Source: an uncultured Sphaerobacteraceae bacterium
GTDB lineage: Bacteria; Chloroflexota; Chloroflexia; Thermomicrobiales; UBA6265
Direction: 5' to 3'
NCBI GenBank assembly: GCA_964434995.1
Contig: CAYSXO010000010.1
Span: 1-37,058, forward strand
DNA length: 37,058 nt
The notes under the pieces are model-generated. The model was not told the DNA's origin, did not search any database, and saw nothing but the letters and a program-made list of their open reading frames with translations. A program made the translations under genes and the position numbers. Position 1 is the first letter of the stretch, and the number at the start of each line of letters is the position of its first letter. Positions 6,701-33,189 of this stretch are shown piece after piece.

Positions 6701-7242
6701 ACGGCGGCCTTGAGTTCCAGAATGTCTTGAGTTGTTTCAATGATGAAAAGATCGACTCCCCCGTCCGCGAGCCCTCTCACCTGATCGAGGAAGAGATCGA
6801 CCACCTCGGAAAAGCGGTGATTGCCGAGCAACGGATCCTCCGACGCGGGCAATAGTCCCGTCGGGCCTATGGACCCGGCGACGAACCGGGGATGCGCCGC
6901 GGTGTTGTATGCCGTGGCAACGCGCCTGGCAAGCTCAGCCGCCGCCCGGTTCTGCTCGTACGTCCGGTCGCCTAGTCCGTACTCCTCGAGCTTGAGCTTG
7001 CTCCCGCCGAAGGTGTCTGTTTCCAGAACATCGACCCCAACTTCAAGAAACGACGCGTGGACTTCTTCGATGAGGCCAGGATTGTGGAAAATGAGATACT
7101 CATTGCATCCCTCGATGCCGCCATATCCATCCGCATCGAGCTCGTGGCGCTGGATCGATGTCCCCATCGCGCCATCAAAGATGACAACACGCTCGCGGAC
7201 GAGATCGAGGTAAGAGGTTTCGCTCGTTTTTCTGGAACTCAT
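3778..7242 (-). CDS. metH: cobalamin-dependent methionine synthase
   Basis: 1154 aa with all modules: N-terminal homocysteine S-methyltransferase domain, pterin-binding domain, B12-binding DxHxxG motif (DVHDIGKN) and a C-terminal AdoMet-activation domain. Confidence 0.95.
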   Translation of the reverse strand: MSSRKTSETSYLDLVRERVVIFDGAMGTSIQRHELDADGYGGIEGCNEYLIFHNPGLIEEVHASFLEVGVDVLETDTFGGSKLKLEEYGLGDRTYEQNRAAAELARRVATAYNTAAHPRFVAGSIGPTGLLPASEDPLLGNHRFSEVVDLFLDQVRGLADGGVDLFIIETTQDILELKAAVHAILRVREESGRCIPIQAQVTLDTSGRMLLGTDIAAALAVLEALRVDVVGLNCSTGPEHMREPARYLGEYSTRPVAIIPNAGLPLNVNGRAVYPLDPDTMARDLREMVEQFGIGIVGGCCGTTPEHLGELVKAIGSRATSQRPAKPLPLTASMVRAVDLRQDPAPLIVGERVNTLGSRKVKRLALADDYDGMVVVAREQVDIGAHALDVCVAMTERTDERDMLRALVKKLALNVESPLVLDSTEADVLKDALEQYPGRAIINSINMENGRTRIDAVLPLAVAHGAAVVAMTIDEDGMAKTAARKVEAARKIHDIVVDEFGLSPEALIFDPLTFPLSTGDEEFTTSALETLEGIRRIEADMPGVMTILGISNVSFGLNPVARKTVNAVFLYHAVEAGLDLAIVHPSHVVPFAEIPQVERELAEDLVLARRPDALARLIEHFEGREETWETGPDPMLGMTPEEKLHYQIVHRKKEGIEEQIDLAVSGRDPVDVLNNVLLPAMKEVGDKFGAGELILPFVLQSAEAMKRAVARLETYLERQEGVTKGTVVLATVYGDVHDIGKNLVNTILTNNGYTVHDLGKQVPVNRIIDKAIEVEATAIGLSALLVSTSKQMPLCVQELHRAGHDFPVIIGGAAINRGYAHRTLFVDDATPYAPGVFYAKDAFEGLSLMDRLVDSDARASLVVTTIDEARTSLSKPGRQAFSVPAEAGAVVTSTVREVEPTSPPFWGAREMHDVELSNVWPHLDLKTLFRLHWGGKGLRDDAWESMQRDEFLPRLERMQREAVEQRWLRPRVRYGYFPANRDGNDLVVFSPDEEEREIARFSFPRQPRRDRLCLADYYLPISSGRRDVAAFQIVTVGAEASARTETLQAAGEYSESFFAHGLSVQSAEGLADYAHSRIRADVGAAPDQGKRYSWGYPSCPDLAQHALVDLLLTTGEIGVTVTDGFQFEPEQTTAALVVLHPDARYFALAVSGND

Positions 7243-7469
7243 GCCTGCGGACTGCTCCTTGTTGCTGGTGCCTCGATTATAGACATGCGACGCTTCCCTG
7301 AGTCGCCTGCAATCGGCTCAAAATGCCCCGGTTCTTCGAACCGCGAGCGCTCCCTGTGGCCCGCGCGGGCAGCCGGAGACGACTGTTCATCATCTGCCTG
7401 AGCATCTAGACTGGGCTGTGCAGCCGGGAGGGTTGACCACGCTGCATATGAAGCGGAAAGGGGTTCTGC

Positions 7470-8066
7470 ATGTTCCATCGTCTTGCGTTCGCGGTCGCCA
7501 TCGTCCTGACGCTTTTGGCGCCATCCGTGGCACGCGCGCAATCGACAGCGGAGCTGATAGCCGCCGATATCGACGCCTTCTGGGCAGCGCAGTTTGCCGA
7601 GCGAGGCCTGACCTATACCTCCCCGAGGTTCCAGCTCATCGATGCGCCGGGCGTGCAGTTCTGCGGTGGCATTGACGTTTTCTATGCCGTGGCTGGCTAC
7701 TGCTCAACAAACAACACCGTCACCGTCTCGACCGGAATCGCGAATCCCGACGCGGTCAACGTCGTTCTGACGCTCCTGAGTCACGAATGGGGCCATCACA
7801 TCCAGAACCTGACCGACACGGGCATCACGTCCGCGCTCGAGTCGGAACTTCAGGCGGACTGCTTTGCAGGGGCATTCATTTCCTACGCGAAGGACGCCGA
7901 CTGGATCAGTCCAGTCATCGGCGCGATGGCCCTCCAGTTGACGCAATCCGCGGGCGACGTCTGGTGGATGGTTCCATACGACGAGGCAATCCACGGCACG
8001 CAGTCAGACCGCGCCATTGCTTTCATGACGGGCCAATCCGGCGGCGTTGAGGCGTGTGGCTTCTGA
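7470..8066 (+). CDS. YpfJ-like neutral zinc metallopeptidase, exported
   Basis: Signal-like N-terminus (AIVLTLLAPSVARAQS), HExxH motif (SHEWGHHIQN) and ELQADCFAGAF segment, as in the PF04228-type putative zinc peptidases. Confidence 0.75.
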   Translation: MFHRLAFAVAIVLTLLAPSVARAQSTAELIAADIDAFWAAQFAERGLTYTSPRFQLIDAPGVQFCGGIDVFYAVAGYCSTNNTVTVSTGIANPDAVNVVLTLLSHEWGHHIQNLTDTGITSALESELQADCFAGAFISYAKDADWISPVIGAMALQLTQSAGDVWWMVPYDEAIHGTQSDRAIAFMTGQSGGVEACGF

Positions 8067-14612: not shown

Positions 14613-14754
14613 CTTGACTTCCCCTGGGATGAGCGGCGACGAGCCTGATGAGTCGAAGATCCCGACGCGAGGAGAGGGGTCTTTATCAAGTTTACGGCTC
14701 TGGTGGAAGCATGGATGTTCTGCGCGCTACGTGAACGGGGGGTGAAACACGAGG

Positions 14755-20588: not shown

Positions 20589-20951
20589 ATGGCGATGTTG
20601 TTCATGGTAATTGAGCGATTCCCGCCAGGAAGCGTACCGGCGATCTATCGCCGGTTGCGCGAAGAGGGAAGGTCTCTGCCTGATGGGCTCTCGAATGTGA
20701 ACAGTTTGATCGAGGCAAACCTCGGCCGCTGCTTCCAACTGATGGAGTGCGACGACGCTCGACTGTTGCAGGAATGGGTCCTCAGATGGAATGGCAAGAT
20801 TGATGCGGAGATCGTCCCGGTGGTGCCATCCAGAGAGACGCAAGCTGTCGTCCAGCCGTTCCTCTCGCCTGCGCCGGGGAAAAAAGGAAGCGCAATGAGT
20901 CAACCGGCGTGGTACCCCAGGCAGGATTCGAACCTGCGGCCTGCCGCTTAG
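20589..20951 (+). CDS. DUF3303-family protein with a 3' extension running into tRNA-Arg
   Basis: MLFMVIERF...YRRLREEGRSLPDGL...CFQLMECDD...VPVVPS matches my recollection of the DUF3303 pattern. ATG 20589 follows GAGGAAGG. There is no stop until 20949-20951, which is inside the antisense tRNA. Confidence 0.65.
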   Translation: MAMLFMVIERFPPGSVPAIYRRLREEGRSLPDGLSNVNSLIEANLGRCFQLMECDDARLLQEWVLRWNGKIDAEIVPVVPSRETQAVVQPFLSPAPGKKGSAMSQPAWYPRQDSNLRPAA

Positions 20952-20985
20952 AAGGCGGATGCTCTATCCACTGAGCTACTGGGGC
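20910..20985 (-). tRNA. tRNA-Arg (anticodon UCU), CCA encoded
   Basis: Manual fold: acceptor GCCCCAG/CTGGGGT, D-arm GCTC-AGTGGATA-GAGC, anticodon loop CTTCTAA, T-arm GCAGG-TTCGAAT-CCTGC, then discriminator A + CCA. Confidence 0.9.
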
Positions 20986-21911
20986 GCCCGCGCCCCAGTA
21001 TAAACGCCCCGATCGCCTTCTACTCCCACCATTGGCGTTGCCTGCCCCTGGACCATGCAGTCGTCCGGATACGTCCTGATTCTGGCTCTCCGGTCAGTCA
21101 GGAAGTCCAGAATCCCGCACCTCCCGCCAGTCGCGCGCAGTTGATCGCACCGTTGAATTCGCTGGGCAGTGGCCCGCGCCTGCTCGATGCGGCCAAACTG
21201 GATGAGCGCGAAAATCAGGAAGTACCTGCTGACGACATTCAGAATTCCTCGTTCCTGATAGCGTCTGGCGCTGGTAAGAAGCCGTGGTTCGCGGACAAAC
21301 CAGACTTCGCCTTGGGTGTGAAGCCGCTGAGCAATCATGGAATCTTCGCCATAGAACTGAAACCTGAGATCGACGCCTCCAGCGCAACGCAGGGCTTCTG
21401 TGCGCACGGCCATGGTCGAACCAATCAGCACTTCCGGCTTCGCCATGGCGCGTAGCGCGAAATTGGCAATCGGATTGAGAATTCCCTGGAAGAGTCGGTT
21501 TCCGATAGCATCGACCAGGCGGCCATCATGGAAGTCGAAAGCCGCTGAGAGTCCGACAAGGCGGGGATTTCGGTCGAACAGCCGGACGATCTGCAAGGCG
21601 CCGGCAGGCGGGATTCTCGAGTCCGCGTCGACGAAGATCAGGATCTCGCCCCGCGCGGCGTCGAGCCCAGCTTGCCGCGCATGGGCCAGGCCAGCCCGTT
21701 CTTCAAGCACGACGAATGCGCCGTGCTCAGCGGCGCGCTCAGCCGTTTGGTCGGTCGATCCGTTGTCGACCACGATAATCTCGCACGGTACGTCAAGACA
21801 CTGGATTTGCAGTGACTCGATGCACGCGGCGATCATCGCTTCTTCGTTCCTCGCGGGAACGACAAACGACACCTTCGGCATTGCCAGGTGGTGGTGGCAG
21901 TCGGTGCTCAA
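20976..21911 (-). CDS. family-2 glycosyltransferase
   Basis: VSFVVPARNEE...VVDNGSTDQT...DAD motifs of the GT-A/GT2 fold. The start is ambiguous (TTG 21911 or ATG 21881). The last 10 nt overlap the 5' end of tRNA-Arg on the same strand. Confidence 0.8.
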   Translation of the reverse strand: MSTDCHHHLAMPKVSFVVPARNEEAMIAACIESLQIQCLDVPCEIIVVDNGSTDQTAERAAEHGAFVVLEERAGLAHARQAGLDAARGEILIFVDADSRIPPAGALQIVRLFDRNPRLVGLSAAFDFHDGRLVDAIGNRLFQGILNPIANFALRAMAKPEVLIGSTMAVRTEALRCAGGVDLRFQFYGEDSMIAQRLHTQGEVWFVREPRLLTSARRYQERGILNVVSRYFLIFALIQFGRIEQARATAQRIQRCDQLRATGGRCGILDFLTDRRARIRTYPDDCMVQGQATPMVGVEGDRGVYTGARAPQ

Positions 21912-24544: not shown

Positions 24545-25555
24545 ATGTCAAACGCAACGGAAAACGCTTTCCTCGGCGCGCTACTTGGCATGGCAATCGG
24601 CGACGCCCTTGGCGCCCCCGCTAGCGGTCTCGATCGCGAACAGATCGCGGAACGGTTCGGCATCATCGATCGCTATTACCCGGCGCTCTCTCCGGATCGC
24701 GAGGACGCCCAGCCAGGAGAGTTCACGGATGAGACAGAGTTCGCCTTGTGTATCGCCGAATCGATGACGGCGAACCGCGGGGAATTCGATCGTGAAACGG
24801 CAGGGTATCGGATGGTGCGCCTGGCATCAGGTCCGTCCCGCCACTGGATGCGCGACGCGACCCGAAATGCGCTTGACGTTGCTGGCGAGACCCTGGAGTT
24901 CATCGTCCGCATTGACGAAGACGGACTTGCCACGGGCGACGTCGCCGCGCGCGGTGTTCCCGTCGGACTGATCCACGCGATTGGACAGTTCAAACCCGGC
25001 CAACTACGCGTCGATTCGGAAGCCGTCGCGCGCGTTACGCACGGAGGTCCGGCGGCGTTCAATGCCGTCGCGGCGGTCGCGTTCGCGATTCGCCTGGCGG
25101 CAACCGGCGTTCCTCGCGAAGATTGGGCAAGGTCGACCTCGGACTTCCTCGGAGGAGGACAACTTGCCGACGCACTTGCGCGGCTCGACCACCTTCGACA
25201 CGGCAGAACCCTGGAGGAGACGCTGCTGCTCGTGGGAACGGGGCTCGGCGCCTCCGAGTCGATTCCTGCCTCGTTCGCGGCTGCCACGGCATGCGAGTCA
25301 TTTGAGGACGCGGTCTTTGCGGTTGTCAACGCGGGCGGAGCCACCGATACCATCGGCGCATTGACTGGAGCGCTGGCCGGCGCCGCCGGCGGTGCGTCCT
25401 CCATTCCGCAAGAGCTGATCGATGGGCTTGAGGGCCGAATCTCCATCTCGCTGGCCGCCCCTTGGCTGCACAAGGCAGCGCGCCAGCGCGCCGGTCAGTT
25501 GATCGACCTCCGGCCGGTCCACGGGCCTCGTCCGGAGATGCCACCTCGCCACTAG
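24545..25555 (+). CDS. ADP-ribosylglycohydrolase-family protein
   Basis: N-terminal FLGALLGMAIGDALGAP and C-terminal GGATDTIGALTGALAGA motifs. ATG 24545 chosen. The stop overlaps the convergent monooxygenase stop (CTAG). Confidence 0.8.
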   Translation: MSNATENAFLGALLGMAIGDALGAPASGLDREQIAERFGIIDRYYPALSPDREDAQPGEFTDETEFALCIAESMTANRGEFDRETAGYRMVRLASGPSRHWMRDATRNALDVAGETLEFIVRIDEDGLATGDVAARGVPVGLIHAIGQFKPGQLRVDSEAVARVTHGGPAAFNAVAAVAFAIRLAATGVPREDWARSTSDFLGGGQLADALARLDHLRHGRTLEETLLLVGTGLGASESIPASFAAATACESFEDAVFAVVNAGGATDTIGALTGALAGAAGGASSIPQELIDGLEGRISISLAAPWLHKAARQRAGQLIDLRPVHGPRPEMPPRH

Positions 25556-26811
25556 TCGTCGTGGCCGTCACGCGCGGCTGTCAATGCTGGCTCGAGTTCT
25601 TCGCCAAGGTACCGGCGCCGGGCGCCCTCAGTCACGGGCAAGCCCTCCGGCCCCAGCGCGAAGATCGGCCCATAGCCAAGCCGAAAAGGATCGGCTTCGG
25701 CCGCGCGCTTCGCCCGCTCACGCGCCGCGTCCGCCTCCCTTCCGATATCGGTCACCAGTGGTCCCCGCCACATCGCGTAGGCGCGAAGCGGCTCGTACCA
25801 GGTCGGCCTCCGGGCGGCAAACGCGGTTGGCGCGTTTTTCCAATCACCTTCGGCTGTCAGAAGGTCGCTCAGCGCACGCACGTCTCTGAATGCCAGAGAG
25901 AGCCCCTGTCCCAGCGCCGGGTCGTTCGCGCCGGCCGCATCACCGATCAGGACCACACCGTCGCCAGCAAGGCGGTCAGAGACAATATCGGCAGCCGGGA
26001 AAAACGCCGCTGGCCCCACGGCCTGAGCGCGTTCAAACGCGCCGCCCGAAAACGCGGTAGCGCAATGCGCGATGAACCGCTCAGCCGCGCCAGGACCTCG
26101 CACCGCCCTGGCGACTTCTGGCTGGACGACGAGGTAGGCCCGTGCCCGGCCGCTGCCATGCCGAAAGACAAGGGCCATGCCGCCGTCAAACCGGCTCACG
26201 TGCGATGCGTCCGGATCGAGTGCAACGCCTTCCACCAGGCAGCCACCGAGCAGATGGTGAACGGGATCGCGCATGGTTCGCGCGCCGATCCAGCGCCGAA
26301 CGCCCGACTCTTTCCCGTCCGCGCCAACAACCAGCCTCGCCGTGACTCTCTGGAAATCGGAGATGCCCGTAACGCGAACTCGCATCGCTCCCGAGGCATC
26401 TCGACCGAGCGCCGTGGTTTTTGCAGGCCGGATGACACGGGCGCCAGCAGCCGATGCCTCCTGAATCAGGGCTTCCTGAAGCTTGGGATGATCGACGCCC
26501 CACAGGACATCACCGCTCGGGACATCGCTTCGCCAATCGTATGGCGCTGCCGGCTCCCGATCCTCATAGCTTTGCCAGATCGGTAGGGCGCGGGCCCCGG
26601 CGGCAGGCAATATGCTCGCAATGCCGAGGCGTGAGGCTTCAACAGCGCCCCAAGGAAACAGTGCATCTCCTCGGACACGGTCGCGAAACCGAGCTTCTCG
26701 CTCGATGACGGCGACCGAGAGACCTGCCCGCCGCAAGACAATGGCAAGTGTCGAGCCAGCAACGCCTCCGCCAACAATGGCGACATCGGCCACAATCGTG
26801 CTGGAGGTCAT
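25552..26811 (-). CDS. FAD-dependent (PHBH-fold) monooxygenase/oxidoreductase
   Basis: GxGxxG dinucleotide fold (VAIVGGGVAGS), DGKESGVRR and IGDAAGANDPALGQG motifs. The ATG overlaps the upstream permease stop (ATGA). Confidence 0.8.
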   Translation of the reverse strand: MTSSTIVADVAIVGGGVAGSTLAIVLRRAGLSVAVIEREARFRDRVRGDALFPWGAVEASRLGIASILPAAGARALPIWQSYEDREPAAPYDWRSDVPSGDVLWGVDHPKLQEALIQEASAAGARVIRPAKTTALGRDASGAMRVRVTGISDFQRVTARLVVGADGKESGVRRWIGARTMRDPVHHLLGGCLVEGVALDPDASHVSRFDGGMALVFRHGSGRARAYLVVQPEVARAVRGPGAAERFIAHCATAFSGGAFERAQAVGPAAFFPAADIVSDRLAGDGVVLIGDAAGANDPALGQGLSLAFRDVRALSDLLTAEGDWKNAPTAFAARRPTWYEPLRAYAMWRGPLVTDIGREADAARERAKRAAEADPFRLGYGPIFALGPEGLPVTEGARRRYLGEELEPALTAARDGHDD

Positions 26812-27731
26812 CGCATGCGGGGATCGAGAACGTCGCGCAGACCGTCGCCAAGCAAGTTCAACCCCAGAACGACAGTAACAATAGCCAGTCCAGGGACCGT
26901 ACTCGACCAGTGGTTCTGCAGCATGTAGTTCCGGCCCTCGGCGATCATGACCCCGAGACTCGGCAAAGGCGGCTGCGCGCCCATGCCAATGAACGAGAGT
27001 CCAGCCTCGACGATGATCCCCAGGGCAACGTAGTACGAAGCCATCACCAGCGCCGGCGCAAGCACATTTGGCACAACATGGCGAATGAGGATGCGGCCCT
27101 CAGGCAAGCCACACGCTCGCGCGGCCTGGACGAACTCAGCCTCACGCAGGCTCAATACCTCGCCTCGAACGATGCGGGCGAAGCCCGCCCAGTTGATCAG
27201 CCCAACCGCCAGTACCGTCGCCACCAACCCGGGACCGAGCGTGCCCGCCAGAATGACGGCCAACAGGATCAGCGGAAAGCCCCACGTGAACTCAACGATC
27301 GCGCTGATCAGACTATCGACCCACCCCCGGCGAAAGCCCGCGATCGATCCGGCAGCCATGCCAATGGCCATCGAGATGGCGGTGACCCCGAAGCCCACGA
27401 TTAGGGAGATTCGAATGCCCGTGAGGAGCCGGGAAAAGACGTCTCGCCCAACCTGATCCGTTCCGAAAAGGTGTCCGTCGGTGAGTGGCGGCAAATTGGC
27501 CTGAAGCAGATTCTGCTTGGCGTAGTCGAACGGCGCGAACATCGGCCCGAAAATGCCGAGAAGGATGTAGATGAGCGCGACAACAGAACCCAGCAGCGCG
27601 AGCCGATTTCTCGCCAGACGGCGCCAGGCGAGCATGAGTTGGCTTGTCCCATGCATTGCCTGAACAGGCATGTCCCCAGGCAACGTGGACACGTCGGAGG
27701 CGGCTACGGCCATTGGCGCGGACTCTCGCAA
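26808..27731 (-). CDS. ABC transporter permease, DppC/OppC-like
   Basis: Multi-TM protein with the binding-protein-dependent transport signature region (REAEFVQAARACGLPEGRILIRHVVPN). The start is uncertain: TTG 27731, or a downstream ATG. Confidence 0.85.
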   Translation of the reverse strand: MRESAPMAVAASDVSTLPGDMPVQAMHGTSQLMLAWRRLARNRLALLGSVVALIYILLGIFGPMFAPFDYAKQNLLQANLPPLTDGHLFGTDQVGRDVFSRLLTGIRISLIVGFGVTAISMAIGMAAGSIAGFRRGWVDSLISAIVEFTWGFPLILLAVILAGTLGPGLVATVLAVGLINWAGFARIVRGEVLSLREAEFVQAARACGLPEGRILIRHVVPNVLAPALVMASYYVALGIIVEAGLSFIGMGAQPPLPSLGVMIAEGRNYMLQNHWSSTVPGLAIVTVVLGLNLLGDGLRDVLDPRMR

Positions 27732-28652
27732 TCAGGCATGCCGGATTCGCGGATCCGCCAGACCATAGGCGATGTCGGCGAGAAGGTTTGCGCCGATCAC
27801 GATCGCCACCAGTAGAAGCGAGAAAAACTGGGCTACCGGGTAGTCGCGGCGGACAACCGCATCAACCAGCAGATACCCCATGCCTGGCCACTGGAAGATG
27901 GTTTCGACGATGAGTGAATAGCCGATGAGCCAGCCCAGCCGCAACCCGGCAAGTGAGATGACCGGGATGAGCGCGGTGCGAAAGACGCGCCCGTAAACAA
28001 CCGTTGACTCGGCAAGCCCTTTGGCGCGATGGGTGCGCACGAAATCCTGCCCGAGTTGCTCCAGCATGGACGAACGGGTCATACGGATCGTGACCGCCGT
28101 TCCCTCCGCGGCGAGAACCACCGCGGGCAAAATGAGCTGATTTGGCGCGCAGCAACCACCCGACGGAAGCCAATGCAGTCGCTGCGCGAAGAGGAAGATC
28201 AGCAACAGCGCCAGCCAGAAATTCGGCATCCCCATCCCGGCGATGCTGATACCGGAGATGACCTGGTCGATCGTACTGTTGCGTTTCGCCGCGGCCAAGG
28301 CGCCGAGCGGCAGGCCAACCGCATAGGTCAGGAAGGTCGCGGCCAATCCGAGGATGACACTATTGCGGCCATAGACCGCCAACAACTCGCCAATCGTCTG
28401 GCCTGTGACGAACGATGCACCGAAGTCACCTTGCGAAATGCTCTTGAGATACGCGCCGTACTGGGCCCAGACCGGAAGGTTGAGCCCGAGCTGCTCGCGA
28501 TAGGCCTCGCGGACTTCCTCTAGCGCGGTAGGACTGAGAACACCGGCGGTTGGATCGCCAGGCGCAAGTCGAAGGCCGTAAAACACGGCGATCGACGCCA
28601 CGATAAGAACGATCGCCGTGCGTAAACCTCGGCGGAAGAGATAGGATCCCAC
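27732..28652 (-). CDS. ABC transporter permease, DppB/OppB-like
   Basis: N-terminus YLFRRGLRTAIVLIVASIAVFYGLRLAPGDP and the EAA-like region (QDFVRTHRAKGLAESTVVYGRVFR). GTG start. Confidence 0.85.
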   Translation of the reverse strand: MGSYLFRRGLRTAIVLIVASIAVFYGLRLAPGDPTAGVLSPTALEEVREAYREQLGLNLPVWAQYGAYLKSISQGDFGASFVTGQTIGELLAVYGRNSVILGLAATFLTYAVGLPLGALAAAKRNSTIDQVISGISIAGMGMPNFWLALLLIFLFAQRLHWLPSGGCCAPNQLILPAVVLAAEGTAVTIRMTRSSMLEQLGQDFVRTHRAKGLAESTVVYGRVFRTALIPVISLAGLRLGWLIGYSLIVETIFQWPGMGYLLVDAVVRRDYPVAQFFSLLLVAIVIGANLLADIAYGLADPRIRHA

Positions 28653-28670: not shown

Positions 28671-29681
28671 TTACCGCTTCCGCTTCTTCGACTTCTGGCT
28701 CTGTCCATTTGCCTTGTTGCGCTGGCGCGCGCGCTGCTTTCGCTTGCGCTTCCTTCGGTTGCCGATCGTATCTGGGACTTCTCGTTCCGGCGCCGGCGTA
28801 AAGAGTGTATCGCAAAAGAACTTGTACTCGCGGTTGGGCGCATTCACCGAAAATGAGACGTTGACAAGAAACCCGGCACCTGTTCCTGGCAAACCGCCAC
28901 AAACAGGCTGATTCCTCCAGATGAGTCTTTCTGAACCGGGCTCGTAATCGACGGGTGGCGCACCGGATTCGAATAGGAAGGACTCACCAACCGCCAATTG
29001 TGGCTGGGAAGAATCGGGAAACTTGTGGACATCGTTCGGGAAGAGAATCGGTTCGACGCTATTGACAATGATGGTCCCGATATCGCGATTGGTTATTTTC
29101 AGCGCCTCAATCCCAGACGACTCGCCTGCCTTCTGTCCTGGGTTGAAAATTTCGCCCTCGATCAACGGCCCAGCGGCGATCCGGTCTGCTTCCTCTTGTT
29201 GGTCTTGCTCATTTCTTCGTGTGGTGCGCCGGCTGTCGATGTTGCTGCGGCGAGTTGAGCGCCGCGACGACCGCCGGGACTGGCGGGCATCTCGTCTCGC
29301 CTGGATCTCGGCCTTCTTCTGCTCTGGCGTCAATGCCGTCGACGTCGCGGTCAGTGCCGGGTCCGCCTGCAGCATGGCGATCTCCTGATCGAGATCTTCG
29401 CTGAAGGGCGAGATCAGGCCGGTTCCGGTTGATACGGTGCCGCCGCTGCCTCCTGAAACGCAGATACCGTAGTTCACGTTGATGGCCGAGGTGACGCAGG
29501 TGAATCCGCTGCAACAACCAATGAGCCTCGTGCAGACATCGCCTGACTGGCCGCAGGTCGCCGGCCCCGGTTGCGAGGCGTTCGCGCCGCGCGCGACGAA
29601 GGCAGCGATCCCACCGGCAGCGGCGAAGAAACCGCGCCGGGTAATCAGTCTCGTGAGATTGTCGAACCTGCGACCGTCCAT
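28671..29681 (-). CDS. hypothetical Tat-signal protein with a 6-Cys knottin-like module, an Arg/Ser-rich segment and a polybasic C-terminal tail
   Basis: ATG 29681 follows GTGAGGA (the track's GTG at 29693 is possible). Features in order: MDGRRFDNLTRLITRRGFFAAAGGIAAFVARGANA signal; C-x6-C-x5-CC-x4-C-x11-C module; RRDARQSRRSSRRSTRRS... segment; tail RRKRKRKQRARQRNK...KSKKRKR. The ORF ends 18 nt before the permease start. Confidence 0.7.
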   Translation of the reverse strand: MDGRRFDNLTRLITRRGFFAAAGGIAAFVARGANASQPGPATCGQSGDVCTRLIGCCSGFTCVTSAINVNYGICVSGGSGGTVSTGTGLISPFSEDLDQEIAMLQADPALTATSTALTPEQKKAEIQARRDARQSRRSSRRSTRRSNIDSRRTTRRNEQDQQEEADRIAAGPLIEGEIFNPGQKAGESSGIEALKITNRDIGTIIVNSVEPILFPNDVHKFPDSSQPQLAVGESFLFESGAPPVDYEPGSERLIWRNQPVCGGLPGTGAGFLVNVSFSVNAPNREYKFFCDTLFTPAPEREVPDTIGNRRKRKRKQRARQRNKANGQSQKSKKRKR

Positions 29682-30178
29682 TTGCGTCCTCACCGCGTTG
29701 TGATTGCCATGTTCGTTCGCTCGGCGGGTTCTTCACATTTTACGCGAGGTTGCCGGAATTGAGAACTCCTCTCGGCAGGTCCGTCAAAGACTTTACACCC
29801 GTCCGGAAGAGTCAGATCCATGCGTCACGTATTTCCGCTAGACATTCCCCCAATTCATCGCCAGATCTTGGGACGTTCGGGCGTCGCCGAGGAGGTGTCC
29901 TGACCAGTGATCGCTTTGGCCTTGCGGTGAGTCACACGTTTCGAGTGCTGGGCAATGGCGTGAGGGATAAGGAACTCAGCTCGGGTGGGCTCCAATTCGG
30001 TTCAATTTCGGCTCCAACTGGTCGAGGGTGAATCTGGAGCTGCCGCGTTTGGAGGTCTCCGACCGCGCTAATTACGGACGCCGCGAGCGAGACCCGGCAT
30101 GGCGTCGTCGCCACATCAGGTCTCGTCGCTCCTCTACCCTCTCGTCAAGTCGTCATGGCGAAGCCGCCGCGATTCCTC

Positions 30179-31249
30179 TCAGGAGGATGGCTCAAAGTTG
30201 AAAACCGTGGTTGCAGAGTCGTTCGTGGACTTGACTGTCACGGCATCGACATTGGCATTCACGGCGCCTTCGCCGCTTCCGACCTTCATGCCGATGATGC
30301 CCCAGCCAGCGCCATCATTATCGGGAGACGGTCCGGTTGGGTTGATGCGGAGGCCAGGGAAGATTCCGAGGATTTCCTCGAGGCTGCACCATTCGGTTCC
30401 GAGCCGGCACCGGTCATCATCCACATTGTTAAAGTCTTTCGTCAGGCCCCAGGCCTGACCATGAGCAGGGTCGAGAAGGTTCCAATTCTGCCACTCATCG
30501 ACATCGATGGGCTGAGTGGAACTCTGGCCTGGGACAAAAACGAGTCTGCCCTGATATTCAGGCGGAAACGGGTCTGTTCCGGTTCGGTCAACACCGATCT
30601 GGAAGGATGGCGCTGTGTTCGCGCCGGCGCTCGTTACGAACGTGCTGTACGCCAGCGTCTGCAGATCACCGATCGGGGTCCCTTTGAACGCGCGCGTGGA
30701 GAGGAGTTTCCCTTCGGAACTGCCTCCGATCTGCAGCAATGCGCTTCCGTTGCCATAGGGCGGCGTACCAGGCCCGGTTGAAAACTCCGGCCCAATTGGC
30801 TCATCGTCCTGATCGTTATAGAACTGCCAACCAGACATGTCATCTGGCGTTACTCTTTGCACACAAACGCCATTCGGGCAAACACAGGCGCCCGCGTTGC
30901 ACACCAGTCCATCACCGCAGGAATCGCCATCAGCCAGGACCTCGGTCACGCACTTGTGCTTCTGGCAGACCGCCCTCTCGCAGGGGTTCAGCGGCGCCTC
31001 GCAGACTTTGCCCTTGTCGTTGCACTCTTCGTTTCGCTTCTTCTTTTTCTCCTGTCGCTCCTTTCTTCGATCCCTTCTCTTATTACGGCGGCTCTTGGCA
31101 TCGGCCTCGTCCAGCCCACCCTGGCCGGCAAGGCCGATCAGACCCAGGATGCCGCCAACCGCGCCCGCCGTGGCGCCTCGCACTACCGTGCGCCGTGACG
31201 TCATGTCGGAGACGCTTTTGACAAATCGGTCGAATCGTTCGCTATCCAC
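30179..31249 (-). CDS. hypothetical Tat-signal protein with a polybasic segment, a 10-Cys module and a C-terminal beta-rich domain of about 225 aa
   Basis: GTG start with an AGAGGTGA RBS. Features in order: MDSERFDRFVKSVSDMTSRRTVVRGATAGAVGG signal; KSRRNKRRDRRKERQEKKKKR segment; Cys module CNDKGKVCEAPLNPCERAVCQKHKC...CGDGLVCNAGACVCPNGVC. No family recognised. Confidence 0.7.
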   Translation of the reverse strand: MDSERFDRFVKSVSDMTSRRTVVRGATAGAVGGILGLIGLAGQGGLDEADAKSRRNKRRDRRKERQEKKKKRNEECNDKGKVCEAPLNPCERAVCQKHKCVTEVLADGDSCGDGLVCNAGACVCPNGVCVQRVTPDDMSGWQFYNDQDDEPIGPEFSTGPGTPPYGNGSALLQIGGSSEGKLLSTRAFKGTPIGDLQTLAYSTFVTSAGANTAPSFQIGVDRTGTDPFPPEYQGRLVFVPGQSSTQPIDVDEWQNWNLLDPAHGQAWGLTKDFNNVDDDRCRLGTEWCSLEEILGIFPGLRINPTGPSPDNDGAGWGIIGMKVGSGEGAVNANVDAVTVKSTNDSATTVFNFEPSS

Positions 31250-31421
31250 TTGCAGTCACCTCTTCTTCGAGACACGATTTAGCGAGTTCGGATCAGCGTT
31301 CTGGCGTTAGGCCTCCCTTCGGCATTGCGCAGCCCCCTGGCAAACGCGCCAATTCCGCGGAAGAACACGTTCTTCTGCTCTTTATTCCGAACTCGAACCG
31401 CAAGTGCGACAGACATGAAGA

Positions 31422-31449
31422 GAGGAGGCGGCCAACCGGCCGCCTCCTC
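31422..31449. terminator. strong stem-loop downstream of the ABC substrate-binding gene
   Basis: Perfect 12-bp stem gaggaggcggcc / ggccgcctcctc with loop aacc, about 65 nt after the SBP stop on the minus strand. No clear U-tract. Confidence 0.5.
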
Positions 31450-31512
31450 CAGATTGCGAGATGATGTTGTCGAGTCTACCTCGACATGTCAGGTTCTTGA
31501 TTCGTCAATCAC

Positions 31513-33189
31513 TTATCCCTGGTCAACCCAGACGTCGTTGTAATGCGGATAGATGTCGTACTGATGCGGCAGCCACCCGTGAACGTTCGGACGCTGCACC
31601 CAGACGCTATTGCGGACCACCAGCGGAATGGTGGGCAAATTTTCGGCGATTGCGAGCTGGAACTGATTCCCGGCAGCCTTCAGCTCTTCCTCGTTCGCCG
31701 CGTTCTTCCACGCTGTAACCGCCTCGTCGACAGCAGGGACACTGGCGCGGCTCCAGTTCGACCCACCGATCGTGTCGGTGCTCACGAACAGAATCACGAC
31801 GTCGATCGGCACAGGCCAGAGGTAGTAGAAGATCGAGCTATCGGCCCCTTCTCCGAGCTTCGCGAAGTAGGAGCCTCGATCCAGGGCCTCGAGGGTGACT
31901 TCCATCCCAAGCTCGGCGAGCGACCCCTGAATCACCGAACCGAGATCACGGTTGAAGGACTCCGCCTGCACGACCAGGTTGAATGCGTGGCGAACGCCAT
32001 TCTTGGTCAGAATCCCGTCGTCACCCGGCGTCCAACCGAGTTCAGCCACCATCGACTTCGCCAGGTCGAGGTCGAACTGATTGAATGCATCCACTTCGGG
32101 GGTGAAGAAGATATCGGCCGGCGTGATTGGCCCATACAGCGGGCTGCCCAGATTCGAAAGTAACGCGGTCACAATCGCCTGACGGTCGATCGCGTGCGAG
32201 ATCGCCTGTCGCATCGCCAACTCATGGAAGTCGAGATCGGTGCGCTCGAAGTTGGTGTTGAAGATGTAGCCAGAAGGCTCGCTGAACGACGAAACGGCAA
32301 GATTGGCATTCTGCTCCAGCCGCGCCACATCCTGCAGAAGCGGATTCCGCAGTGTGTCAATCTCGCCATTCTCGATCTTGATTGCGCGCTGGGCGCCTTC
32401 CAGAATCGGCTCCCAACGGATGCCGTCCAGATATGCCTTGCCCTTGTTGGTGAAGTACGGCACGATCGAGCCGGGATAGTCTTCCCAGCGGGTAACCGTG
32501 GCGTAACTGCCGGGCACCCACTCGTCAAGAAGAAACGGACCAGTGCCGTCGACAACGCTCTTGCCATACGCTTCGGCTTCGGCGACGCGCGTAGCATTGT
32601 TCGCAATCGCCCAGTACCCCGTCTTGACCACGTTCAGCACCTCGTAGTACGGGTGCGCCATGTTCAGCACGAGCGTCCGCTCGTCGAGTGCCTCAATCGA
32701 CTCTACGGGCGTAAAGAGCGTCGACAGGGGCGATCCGCTCGCCGGATCCTGAATCGTCTCGTACAGCTCCTTGACCGCCTCGGCCGTTAACGGAGCACCA
32801 GAGTGGAATAGGCCACCCTCCTTCAACACGAAGGTAACCGACGTTCCGTCTTCAGAAACCTCCCATGACTCGGCCAGGTTTGGTTGGAGCGTCCCGTCTG
32901 GCGCATCGATGAGCAGCGAATCGTATAGCGCGTGAAACACGGGGTCATACCAGTTTGTCGCTACGGGATCGAGCAGTGAAAAGTCGAGGTCATAGCCTTC
33001 GCGCAATGTGCCGCCGGAGACCGGCTCCTCCTGAAGCGAGGGCATGGCCGCGGCTTCGCGTACCAGCGCCTGATTCAACGCGGAAGCGCTGAGTCCCAGT
33101 GCGGCCGCTCCAGCCAGCAAGCCACGCCGCGACAGTTTTCGCGCTCGATAGTCCTCCAGAAGCGGCTTCAGCCCCGATTCCTCGTTCAT
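31513..33189 (-). CDS. ABC transporter substrate-binding protein, family 5 (peptide/nickel type), Tat-type signal
   Basis: 558 aa. SRRGLLAGAAALGLSASAL signal. Length and sequence are typical of DppA/OppA-like SBPs. GGAGGAG RBS. Confidence 0.85.
   Translation of the reverse strand: MNEESGLKPLLEDYRARKLSRRGLLAGAAALGLSASALNQALVREAAAMPSLQEEPVSGGTLREGYDLDFSLLDPVATNWYDPVFHALYDSLLIDAPDGTLQPNLAESWEVSEDGTSVTFVLKEGGLFHSGAPLTAEAVKELYETIQDPASGSPLSTLFTPVESIEALDERTLVLNMAHPYYEVLNVVKTGYWAIANNATRVAEAEAYGKSVVDGTGPFLLDEWVPGSYATVTRWEDYPGSIVPYFTNKGKAYLDGIRWEPILEGAQRAIKIENGEIDTLRNPLLQDVARLEQNANLAVSSFSEPSGYIFNTNFERTDLDFHELAMRQAISHAIDRQAIVTALLSNLGSPLYGPITPADIFFTPEVDAFNQFDLDLAKSMVAELGWTPGDDGILTKNGVRHAFNLVVQAESFNRDLGSVIQGSLAELGMEVTLEALDRGSYFAKLGEGADSSIFYYLWPVPIDVVILFVSTDTIGGSNWSRASVPAVDEAVTAWKNAANEEELKAAGNQFQLAIAENLPTIPLVVRNSVWVQRPNVHGWLPHQYDIYPHYNDVWVDQG

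Follow-up and report, generated by a model that had tools for sequence, protein, structure and literature searches.

Genes for predicted exported proteins between the binding-protein and permease genes of an Opp/Dpp/Nik-type importer locus in Thermomicrobiales

In importers of the Opp/Dpp/Nik type (PepT family, TC 3.A.1.5), a substrate-binding protein (SBP) of the SBP_bac_5 family and permeases of the OppB/OppC type are encoded on one strand, and in many operons that over-express the SBP, its gene is followed by a hairpin. Here we analyze a locus that shares these features in a 37,058-nt stretch of contig CAYSXO010000010.1 from an uncultured Sphaerobacteraceae bacterium (hereafter, the window). 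Distant orthologues of this locus retain the canonical order, in which the SBP gene is followed by two permease genes (denoted PermB and PermC) and ATPase genes. In the window, the SBP and permease genes lie on the same strand but are split by 2.84 kb, as an earlier note on this DNA had reported and as the coordinates confirm (Table 1). The locus differs from typical importers of this type in several respects: one or two genes for unrelated, predicted exported proteins (open reading frames ORF-A and ORF-B) are located between the SBP gene and PermB; the permeases are apparently driven by the promoter of the inserted gene; no ATPase genes are present in cis; and a gene for a UbiH-like FAD monooxygenase (FADmo) appears to be coupled to PermC. 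On balance, we lean towards the view that the block is not a recent island but an elaboration of an Opp/Dpp/Nik-type ATP-binding cassette (ABC) importer locus that is old and specific to the lineage.

The window genes were compared with 107 related loci, and four arrangement groups were distinguished. In the first group (the window, L001 and L105, the last being an independent contig of a near-identical strain that serves below as the reference for allele comparison), the gene order is FixC > SBP > ORF-B > ORF-A > PermB > PermC > FADmo, continued in the window and L001 by a reverse-strand ADP-ribosylglycohydrolase gene and then CysMet-PLP > AT5 > GT2. The second group (L012, L021, L026, L062) has SBP > ORF-A > PermB > PermC without ORF-B, and the third shows ORF-A > PermB > PermC (L002, L013-L015, L017, L019, L025, L027, L028, L030), with no SBP gene within upstream reach in L002, L014 and L015. 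The fourth group is a sister clade (clade II; about nine distinct loci, CysMet 56% identical) with the order UDG > ORF-A > FADmo, followed by the reverse-strand ADP-ribosylglycohydrolase gene; FADmo either overlaps ORF-A or begins 8 nt after it, and the locus is devoid of any ABC genes.

The arrangements form a gradient along the identity of PermB to that of the window. ORF-A is located directly 5' of PermB, at a distance of 15-35 nt, in all of the approximately 17 loci with close permease orthologues, and in a PermB-anchored metagenome search, it was found directly upstream at every locus with PermB identity of at least 79% and enough upstream sequence. At 72% identity (L034 and L035), the slot between the SBP gene and PermB holds a gene for a 242-aa protein with the same kind of leader, cystine knot and beta domain as described below for ORF-A; at 66-71%, a few loci contain other fillers or gaps of 350-2000 nt; and at 59-65%, in about 40 outgroup loci, the SBP gene abuts PermB with gaps of 3-160 nt. 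Of the outgroup loci, 13 were examined for ATPase genes, and 5 of these (L054, L056, L063, L069, L102) have one or two immediately 3' of PermC. Thus, the premise that the SBP gene normally adjoins the permease genes is borne out by the distant orthologous loci, so that the separation in the window is a derived state; among the close relatives, however, ORF-A is resident in all and ORF-B in few. At this site, ORF-B is restricted to the window, L001 and L105; elsewhere, its homologues either lie 3' of FixC with no SBP gene present (L009, L011) or belong to arrays of paralogues that have the leader in common (L008).

Because of this gradient, we infer that a contiguous SBP-permease operon was the ancestral state, with ORF-A and ORF-B entering later. 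Under this scenario, ORF-A would have entered the SBP/PermB junction early in this lineage of Thermomicrobiales as a gene for an exported protein combining a knot with a lamin-tail-like domain, and would have either carried its own promoter along or gained one there. The ATPase genes would have dropped out of the locus; ORF-B, a member of a second family of exported Cys-rich/jelly-roll proteins, would have joined later and in the sub-lineage of the window only; and clade II, most parsimoniously, would have lost the ABC genes while keeping ORF-A.

Several of the compared loci are disrupted or otherwise peculiar. In L024 (9992-11572), the locus is decayed: ORF-A is broken up into two frames and is followed by a fusion of the N-terminal part of PermB with the C-terminal part of PermC, and then by an intact FADmo; this may be a snapshot of the loss behind the ABC-less clade. 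FADmo in L107 (4154-5227) and ORF-A in L021 (10001-10840) and L019 (784-1494) are split or truncated, which may reflect either sequencing-error frameshifts or real pseudogenes. In L034, the 242-aa knot and beta-domain protein in the SBP/PermB slot (7200-7928) has no polybasic segments, and a gene for a 445-aa Stig1-like Cys-rich protein (831-2168) is located about 2.6 kb 5' of the SBP gene.

The earlier note had raised the possibility of a laterally acquired cassette, under which the 2.84-kb block would have been recently inserted into an intact SBP-permease operon from a donor with a lower GC content. In accord with this possibility, the GC content of the block is 58.9%, compared to 61.8% for the window, which places it at the 1.5th percentile among windows of equal size; ORF-B is limited to the immediate relatives of the window; and a segment of about 380 nt inside ORF-A is clearly imported, as discussed below. 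The difference of about 3 points is marginal, however, and no individual gene carries a foreign signature. The GC content of ORF-A (59.6%) and ORF-B (59.1%) matches that of the flanking SBP (59.9%) and FixC (60.3%) genes, and the GC content of their third codon positions (GC3), 0.691 and 0.672, respectively, is within approximately 1.3 standard deviations of the value for 24 window genes (0.710 +/- 0.029). The deficit of the block resides in the non-coding spacers and in the first codon positions, the latter because the encoded proteins are rich in Lys, Asn, Ser and Thr, and in the sliding GC profile, the sole clearly low-GC patch (0.51-0.54 at about 28750-29200) is inside the variable domain of ORF-A. 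The description of the block as GC-poor is therefore weakly supported: the four hand counts in the earlier note are exact (0.55, 0.433 and 0.517 versus 0.65), but they came from selected lines, and GC3 is normal. Furthermore, no tRNA, integrase or other mobility gene, or flanking repeat was detected in or beside the block (the only tRNAs of the window are at 14753 and 20910), ORF-A is syntenic in more than 25 loci, which cover PermB identities of 79-90% and include the second clade, and every taxon-labelled homologue of both ORFs comes from the same order. Given the native GC3, the lack of mobility features and the synteny of ORF-A across relatives, recent lateral acquisition of the block is improbable, and for ORF-A, it is largely refuted; within this gene, only the cassette of about 380 nt looks imported.

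This cassette encodes the C-terminal beta domain of ORF-A and was delineated by comparison with the near-identical strain represented by L105. The two sequences are 98-100% identical over the 3' end of ORF-B, the whole spacer and ORF-A codons 1-165, and 90-100% identical over the tail of ORF-A and the start of PermB, but over positions 29190-28810, approximately, the nucleotide identity drops to 36-72%, with indels. The frequency of synonymous differences (pS) in the cassette is 0.73, that is, saturated, as opposed to 0.055 in the N-terminal part of ORF-A; therefore, the ancestry of this segment is much older than that of its flanks, as expected of an imported allele and not of a local burst of mutations. 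A comparable contrast is seen in the clade II pair L106/L107, where the background is about 88% identical and the beta domain about 65%, with dN/dS of 0.01 for the leader and knot, and in four independent protein pairs, in which the N-terminal parts are at least 94% identical and the beta domains 24-45%. Moreover, the beta allele of the window is about as close to proteins with 66-78% backbone identity as it is to that of the near-identical strain. Two of the hand-counted low-GC lines (28981 and 29041) fall inside the cassette, where the GC content is 0.47-0.55 in the window allele and 0.52-0.62 in the L105 allele. A few low-GC lines within a gene, then, can reflect an exchanged allelic segment and not a foreign island. 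Such sharply bounded exchange of divergent alleles is typically seen in surface determinants on which balancing or diversifying selection acts, for example, targets of phages or competitors and kin recognition proteins.

Two local mechanisms of diversification were considered and rejected. The cassette is not the target of a diversity-generating retroelement: neither a template repeat of 28791-29200 nor a reverse transcriptase was found in the window, and the divergence includes indels and saturated synonymous sites, with no bias towards adenine among the substitutions. Gene conversion from a local silent cassette is not supported either, because the window has a single copy of the beta domain, and none of the loci has another one closer than 10 kb.

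The cassette is preceded by the most conserved part of ORF-A, a six-Cys cystine-knot-like motif (Table 1), with a mean pairwise identity of 0.76 compared to 0.35 for the beta domain. The cysteine spacing is of the inhibitor-cystine-knot type, and the AlphaFold2 model of this region has pLDDT of about 72; no knottin family was matched in Pfam, and the best PDB sequence match is a theraphotoxin, with E = 2. In five homologues (P0136, P0150, P0152, P0158, P0177), only the leader and knot are present, followed by a Pro/Thr-rich linker and two tandem Cys-ending beta domains; the knot, therefore, is a module joined to different C-terminal parts. Past the knot, ORF-A continues with the conserved sequence GGSGGTV..GT.LISPFSE and a region rich in Thr, which leads into a long basic helix (aa 119-170). 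A beta-sandwich (aa 174-297), modelled with pLDDT of about 90, and a polybasic helix at the C terminus complete the protein (overall pLDDT 75). The top Foldseek matches of the sandwich are the immunoglobulin (Ig) folds of lamins A/C and B1 (probability 0.97-0.99, target TM-score 0.46-0.55, E of about 0.02); the A1 family profile matches a 1603-aa protein with ten lamin tail domains (LTDs) by Pfam (E = 1.4e-7); and alignment of the ORF-A family with the LTD repeats of that protein by hhalign gives a probability of 75% and E = 2.6e-5. Because of these three lines of evidence, we assign the sandwich, with moderate confidence, to a divergent form of the LTD; the Pfam profile PF00932 itself did not match ORF-A at E <= 0.01.

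The knot-type cysteine spacing and the long basic runs, combined with the fast allelic turnover typical of antagonistic factors, could also be taken to indicate that ORF-A is a secreted polycationic knottin-type toxin or bacteriocin, with the variable domain setting target specificity. However, the locus includes neither an adjacent immunity gene nor a dedicated exporter, the knot is invariant instead of diversifying, and no similarity to toxin families reaches significance, given the theraphotoxin match quoted above and the silence of Pfam. We consider this the least probable of the explanations discussed here.

Both ORFs are real, conserved genes of small families that so far are known only from Thermomicrobiales or metagenomic contigs. 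ORF-A has 41 homologues and ORF-B has 21, and in each case, all those with a taxon name belong to Thermomicrobiales or Chloroflexota, as do all 13 matches among 185,579 species-representative genomes, which come from metagenome-assembled genomes of these taxa. An exhaustive profile search with ORF-A against 1.84 billion representatives retrieved 68 clusters at E <= 1e-30. Neither protein has a match in Pfam, NCBIfam, PADLOC or PHROGs, and searches against PDB sequences yielded non-significant matches only. The characterization of the two products as exported-type Cys-rich/polybasic proteins of no known family is thus confirmed by alignments and family searches. A literature search on Tat (twin-arginine translocation), Cys-rich or knottin proteins in Thermomicrobiales or in bacteria yielded nothing relevant.

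ORF-A and ORF-B both begin with the leader M-D/E-x-x-R-F-D-x-L-x-R...S/T-R-R, after which comes a mildly hydrophobic segment; the RR pair is at least 90% conserved in each family. By inspection, both display the features of Tat substrates, namely, S/T-R-R-x-F/L, a moderately hydrophobic h-region and an AxA site. In ORF-A, the predicted signal is TRRGFFAAAGGIAAFVARGANA, with probable cleavage between ANA and S; in ORF-B, it is SRRTVVRGATAG...ADA, with K following the cleavage site. The possibility that the two genes are paralogues was rejected, as BLASTP detects no similarity past the leader. Many further Cys-rich proteins encoded in related contigs start with this leader, which points to a large, leader-united family of predicted exported proteins with members seen in Thermomicrobiales-type contigs. 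A tandem array of at least seven genes with an MDRxRFDxL...SRR leader occupies positions 1861-17428 of L008; past the leader, its products contain polybasic runs and Cys-rich, pentapeptide-repeat or Stig1-like modules, and one of them has the jelly-roll of ORF-B.

ORF-B consists of the Tat-type leader (MDSERFD...SRR), a polybasic helix (aa 48-72), a Cys-rich module (aa 75-130) and a jelly-roll (aa 133-356); the AlphaFold2 model has pLDDT of 76 and pTM of 0.69. For the jelly-roll, of about 225 aa, Foldseek returns matches in the PDB to carbohydrate-binding modules (CBM22, CBM16, CBM11, CBM30 and a porphyran CBM), laminin-IV and ConA-like domains, with marginal E-values (0.02-0.1) and target TM-scores of about 0.5, and matches in BFVD to lectin and phage tail-fibre accessory domains (E from 5e-5 to 0.05). 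The similarity of the Cys module to the disintegrin-like module of ADAMTS is weak and non-significant (E = 0.11). The homologue in L001 is longer, at 458 aa, owing to extra Cys repeats.

With respect to transcription, the locus most likely comprises three units: the SBP gene, ended by a hairpin; ORF-B; and ORF-A-PermB-PermC-FADmo, driven from a promoter 5' of ORF-A. We propose this organization because both the promoter-like box upstream of ORF-A and the hairpin past the SBP gene are conserved. A -10-like GTA(c/a)AAT box about 55 nt 5' of the ORF-A start codon is aligned in 12 clade-I loci, and in seven clade II loci, the equivalent place is occupied by TTGACAG-N17-TATACT. The start of ORF-A itself is the ATG at 29681, given that all homologues begin there in the family alignment, and its TAA stop (28671-28673) leaves 18 nt to the GTG start of PermB at 28652. 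As anticipated from this short distance in the earlier note, ORF-A is very probably co-transcribed with the permease genes, because the gap remains within the same narrow range in all relatives and the promoter-like element precedes ORF-A. The perfect 12-bp hairpin described previously past the SBP gene is real and unusually stable, with a folding energy of -29.8 kcal/mol (z = -3.7 versus shuffled sequences). Strong hairpins occur at the same position past the SBP stop in L001, L012, L021, L026 and L062, and because the position is the same while the sequences differ, the structure appears to be conserved; we interpret it as a putative terminator or attenuator of the SBP unit.

The 4-nt ATGA overlap at 26808-26811 suggests translational coupling of the UbiH-like flavoenzyme to the importer permease. 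The proximity of FADmo to ORF-A, immediate in clade II and within one operon in clade I, is also compatible with ORF-A being the substrate of this enzyme, which would hydroxylate the folded precursor prior to Tat export, by analogy with QhpG, which acts on the Cys-cross-linked QhpC peptide. The Tat pathway is indeed known to carry pre-folded or modified proteins, and FADmo resembles QhpG in a generic way (E = 6e-24, with a score under the curated cut-off). Nevertheless, this score is no better than that for UbiH-type hydroxylases, radical-SAM or other maturation genes are not present, and in L002, L021, L030 and L034, no FADmo adjoins ORF-A or its ORF-A-like equivalent, so we find such a modification improbable.

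The ABC genes are under strong constraint. Compared to L001, PermB and PermC are 88-89% identical, with pN/pS of 0.11-0.12, and the SBP is 86% identical, with pN/pS of 0.13, whereas pN/pS reaches 0.44 for ORF-A and 0.54 for ORF-B. The SBP carries a Tat-type signal (LSRRGLLAGAAALG), and its nearest NCBIfam profiles are those of nickel, opine and glutathione SBPs (NikA/CntA/GsiB-like), with every score below the curated cut-off. The permeases match PF00528, PF19300 and PF12911, and the NCBIfam profiles Opp2B/NikB and Opp4C/NikC are likewise hit below their cut-offs. Neither the 37-kb window nor any of nine clade-I loci (L001, L002, L012, L014, L015, L017, L021, L026, L028) contains an ORF for an ABC ATPase, with Walker A and LSGGQ motifs. 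Without a local ATPase, the transporter must either rely on ATPases from genes at other sites or be of a non-canonical type.

The persistent linkage of ORF-A to the permeases could, in principle, mean that ORF-A, with or without ORF-B, is an accessory module of the importer, acting at the cell surface to capture, concentrate or release the transported ligand for the SBP and permeases. ORF-A or an ORF-A-like knot and beta-domain protein is found between the SBP gene and PermB wherever PermB identity is at least 72%, ORF-A is apparently co-transcribed with the permeases, the jelly-roll of ORF-B resembles carbohydrate-binding modules, and the polybasic segments could bind anionic substrates. However, clade II retains ORF-A at the syntenic site without ABC genes, ORF-B is absent from most loci and is dispensable, and neither protein has a catalytic, enzyme or SBP-like fold. 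Nor is a shared ligand easy to reconcile with the contrast between the SBP, which is 86% conserved, and the hypervariable domain that would be the best candidate for partner binding. An accessory role in transport thus seems rather unlikely, and we do not favour it over the alternative that follows.

Taken together, the results translate into a model of a surface determinant linked to an importer locus. Under this model, ORF-A would leave the cell by the Tat pathway, be stabilized by the three-disulfide knot and be tethered to anionic envelope material by its two polybasic helices, displaying an Ig domain of the lamin-tail type, which recombination replaces with very divergent alleles in different strains. 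ORF-B would probably present a glycan-binding jelly-roll in a similar manner. ORF-A would accordingly be a putative envelope-associated recognition protein, and in the explanation that we consider best, which on the whole has slightly the better of the argument, neither protein is required for transport as such. More tentatively, and with the odds against it, ORF-A might represent an undescribed class of exported knot-LTD proteins with a strain-specific recognition cassette exchanged by recombination, the gene serving as the promoter-bearing leader of the permease operon.

Several considerations weigh against this model. The LTD assignment is only moderate, with Pfam silent, the Foldseek E-value at about 0.02 and the hhalign probability at 75%. 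Tat export of ORF-A is read from the motif alone, and the envelope-tethering and recognition roles are deduced solely from amino acid composition and the evolutionary pattern. The order of insertion and loss events is derived by parsimony over metagenomic contigs. Finally, the invariable co-operonic position with the permeases, which extends to the distant form in L034, could mean a role related to transport.

The coordinates of the features are collected in Table 1. The two long spacers noted earlier were measured and are indeed long. The SBP/ORF-B spacer shows no similarity to its counterpart in L001, and a blastx/blastn comparison of the ORF-B/ORF-A spacer with L001 and L002 revealed conservation limited to the last 65 nt or so. 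No remnant genes were detected in these spacers by blastx/blastn, and Rfam returned only sub-threshold chance matches, none reaching a family threshold. A long, GC-rich hairpin at 30078-30125 (minus strand), about 55 nt past the ORF-B stop, with GCGACGAGACC...GGUCUCGCUCGC around an inner 7-bp stem, was considered as a terminator and rejected for the lack of a U-tract; the fold z-score of the surrounding region versus shuffled sequences is non-significant. Outside the locus, a tRNA-Arg(TCT) gene at 20910-20985 shares 10 nt with the beginning of the GT2 ORF as called mechanically (20976-21911), and the real start of the GT2 gene is probably downstream of the called one.

Table 1. Features of the importer locus in the window, listed by position
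Feature	Coordinates	Strand	Description
FADmo, UbiH-like FAD monooxygenase gene	25552..26811	minus	start overlaps PermC stop (ATGA)
PermC, Opp/Dpp/Nik-type permease	26808-27731	minus	BPD_transp_1, Pfam and NCBIfam
PermB, Opp/Dpp/Nik-type permease	27732-28652	minus	BPD_transp_1, Pfam and NCBIfam
ORF-A	28671..29681	minus	336 aa, starts MDGRRFD; mechanical ORF call, GTG 29693
Hypervariable allelic cassette of ORF-A	28812..29189	minus	LTD-like Ig beta-sandwich, aa ~165-290, ~380 nt
Cystine-knot-like motif of ORF-A	29460..29555	minus	C43-x6-C50-x5-C56C57-x4-C62-x11-C74, invariant in 28 sequences
ORF-B/ORF-A spacer	29682..30178	minus	497 nt
Promoter-like element 5' of ORF-A	29737..29765	minus	TTCTCA-17-TAAAAT
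ORF-B	30179..31249	minus	356 aa, starts MDSERFD
SBP/ORF-B spacer	31250..31512	minus	263 nt, 55.1% GC
Hairpin 3' of SBP gene	31422..31449	minus	perfect 12-bp stem, 4-nt GGUU loop, then UCUCUUCAU
SBP_bac_5 substrate-binding protein gene	31513..33189	minus	Pfam PF00496, E = 3e-69

The locus described here shows durable rewiring of a canonical ABC importer operon by an inserted, unrelated gene for a predicted exported protein, which apparently assumes control over permease transcription and outlasts the later loss of the transporter. The analysis also identifies two uncharacterized protein families that are so far confined to a poorly studied, mostly uncultured order. If the proposed role of ORF-A is correct, the knot-LTD cassette would be a target of phages or competitors or a determinant of self/non-self discrimination, and expression of a surface determinant would be coupled to that of a transporter.

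Comparison with known systems reveals partial parallels to each component of ORF-A. Like bacterial proteins with LTDs (PF00932), such as the extracellular nuclease ExeM, ORF-A is a predicted exported protein with an Ig-like LTD fold, but it falls below the Pfam threshold and has no hydrolase domain. In ORF-A, the LTD-like domain is hypervariable among strains and accompanied by a six-Cys knot and by polybasic helices. For bacterial LTDs, roles in DNA binding and in targeting to the envelope or membrane have been put forward, with no settled function (PMC6085458, PMC4486849); a sharply bounded system of hypervariable alleles would be a new context for such domains. Knottins share with ORF-A the six-Cys framework C-x6-C-x5-CC-x4-C-x11-C, the extracellular location, which for ORF-A is predicted, and the very compact form; however, the knot of ORF-A is a domain of a 336-aa bacterial predicted Tat substrate and not a free peptide, and its disulfide connectivity is putative. 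Targets of diversity-generating retroelements resemble ORF-A in having a localized hypervariable region in an Ig- or lectin-like C-terminal domain. The kin-recognition receptor TraA of Myxococcus is a surface protein with an allelic hypervariable domain that is maintained by recombination. TraA is not homologous to ORF-A, whose function is putative and which has neither a partner gene equivalent to TraB nor a sorting tag; nevertheless, in both proteins, a conserved, partly Cys-rich backbone flanks a sharply bounded, polymorphic, beta-rich domain, the alleles of which are decoupled from the phylogeny of the backbone.

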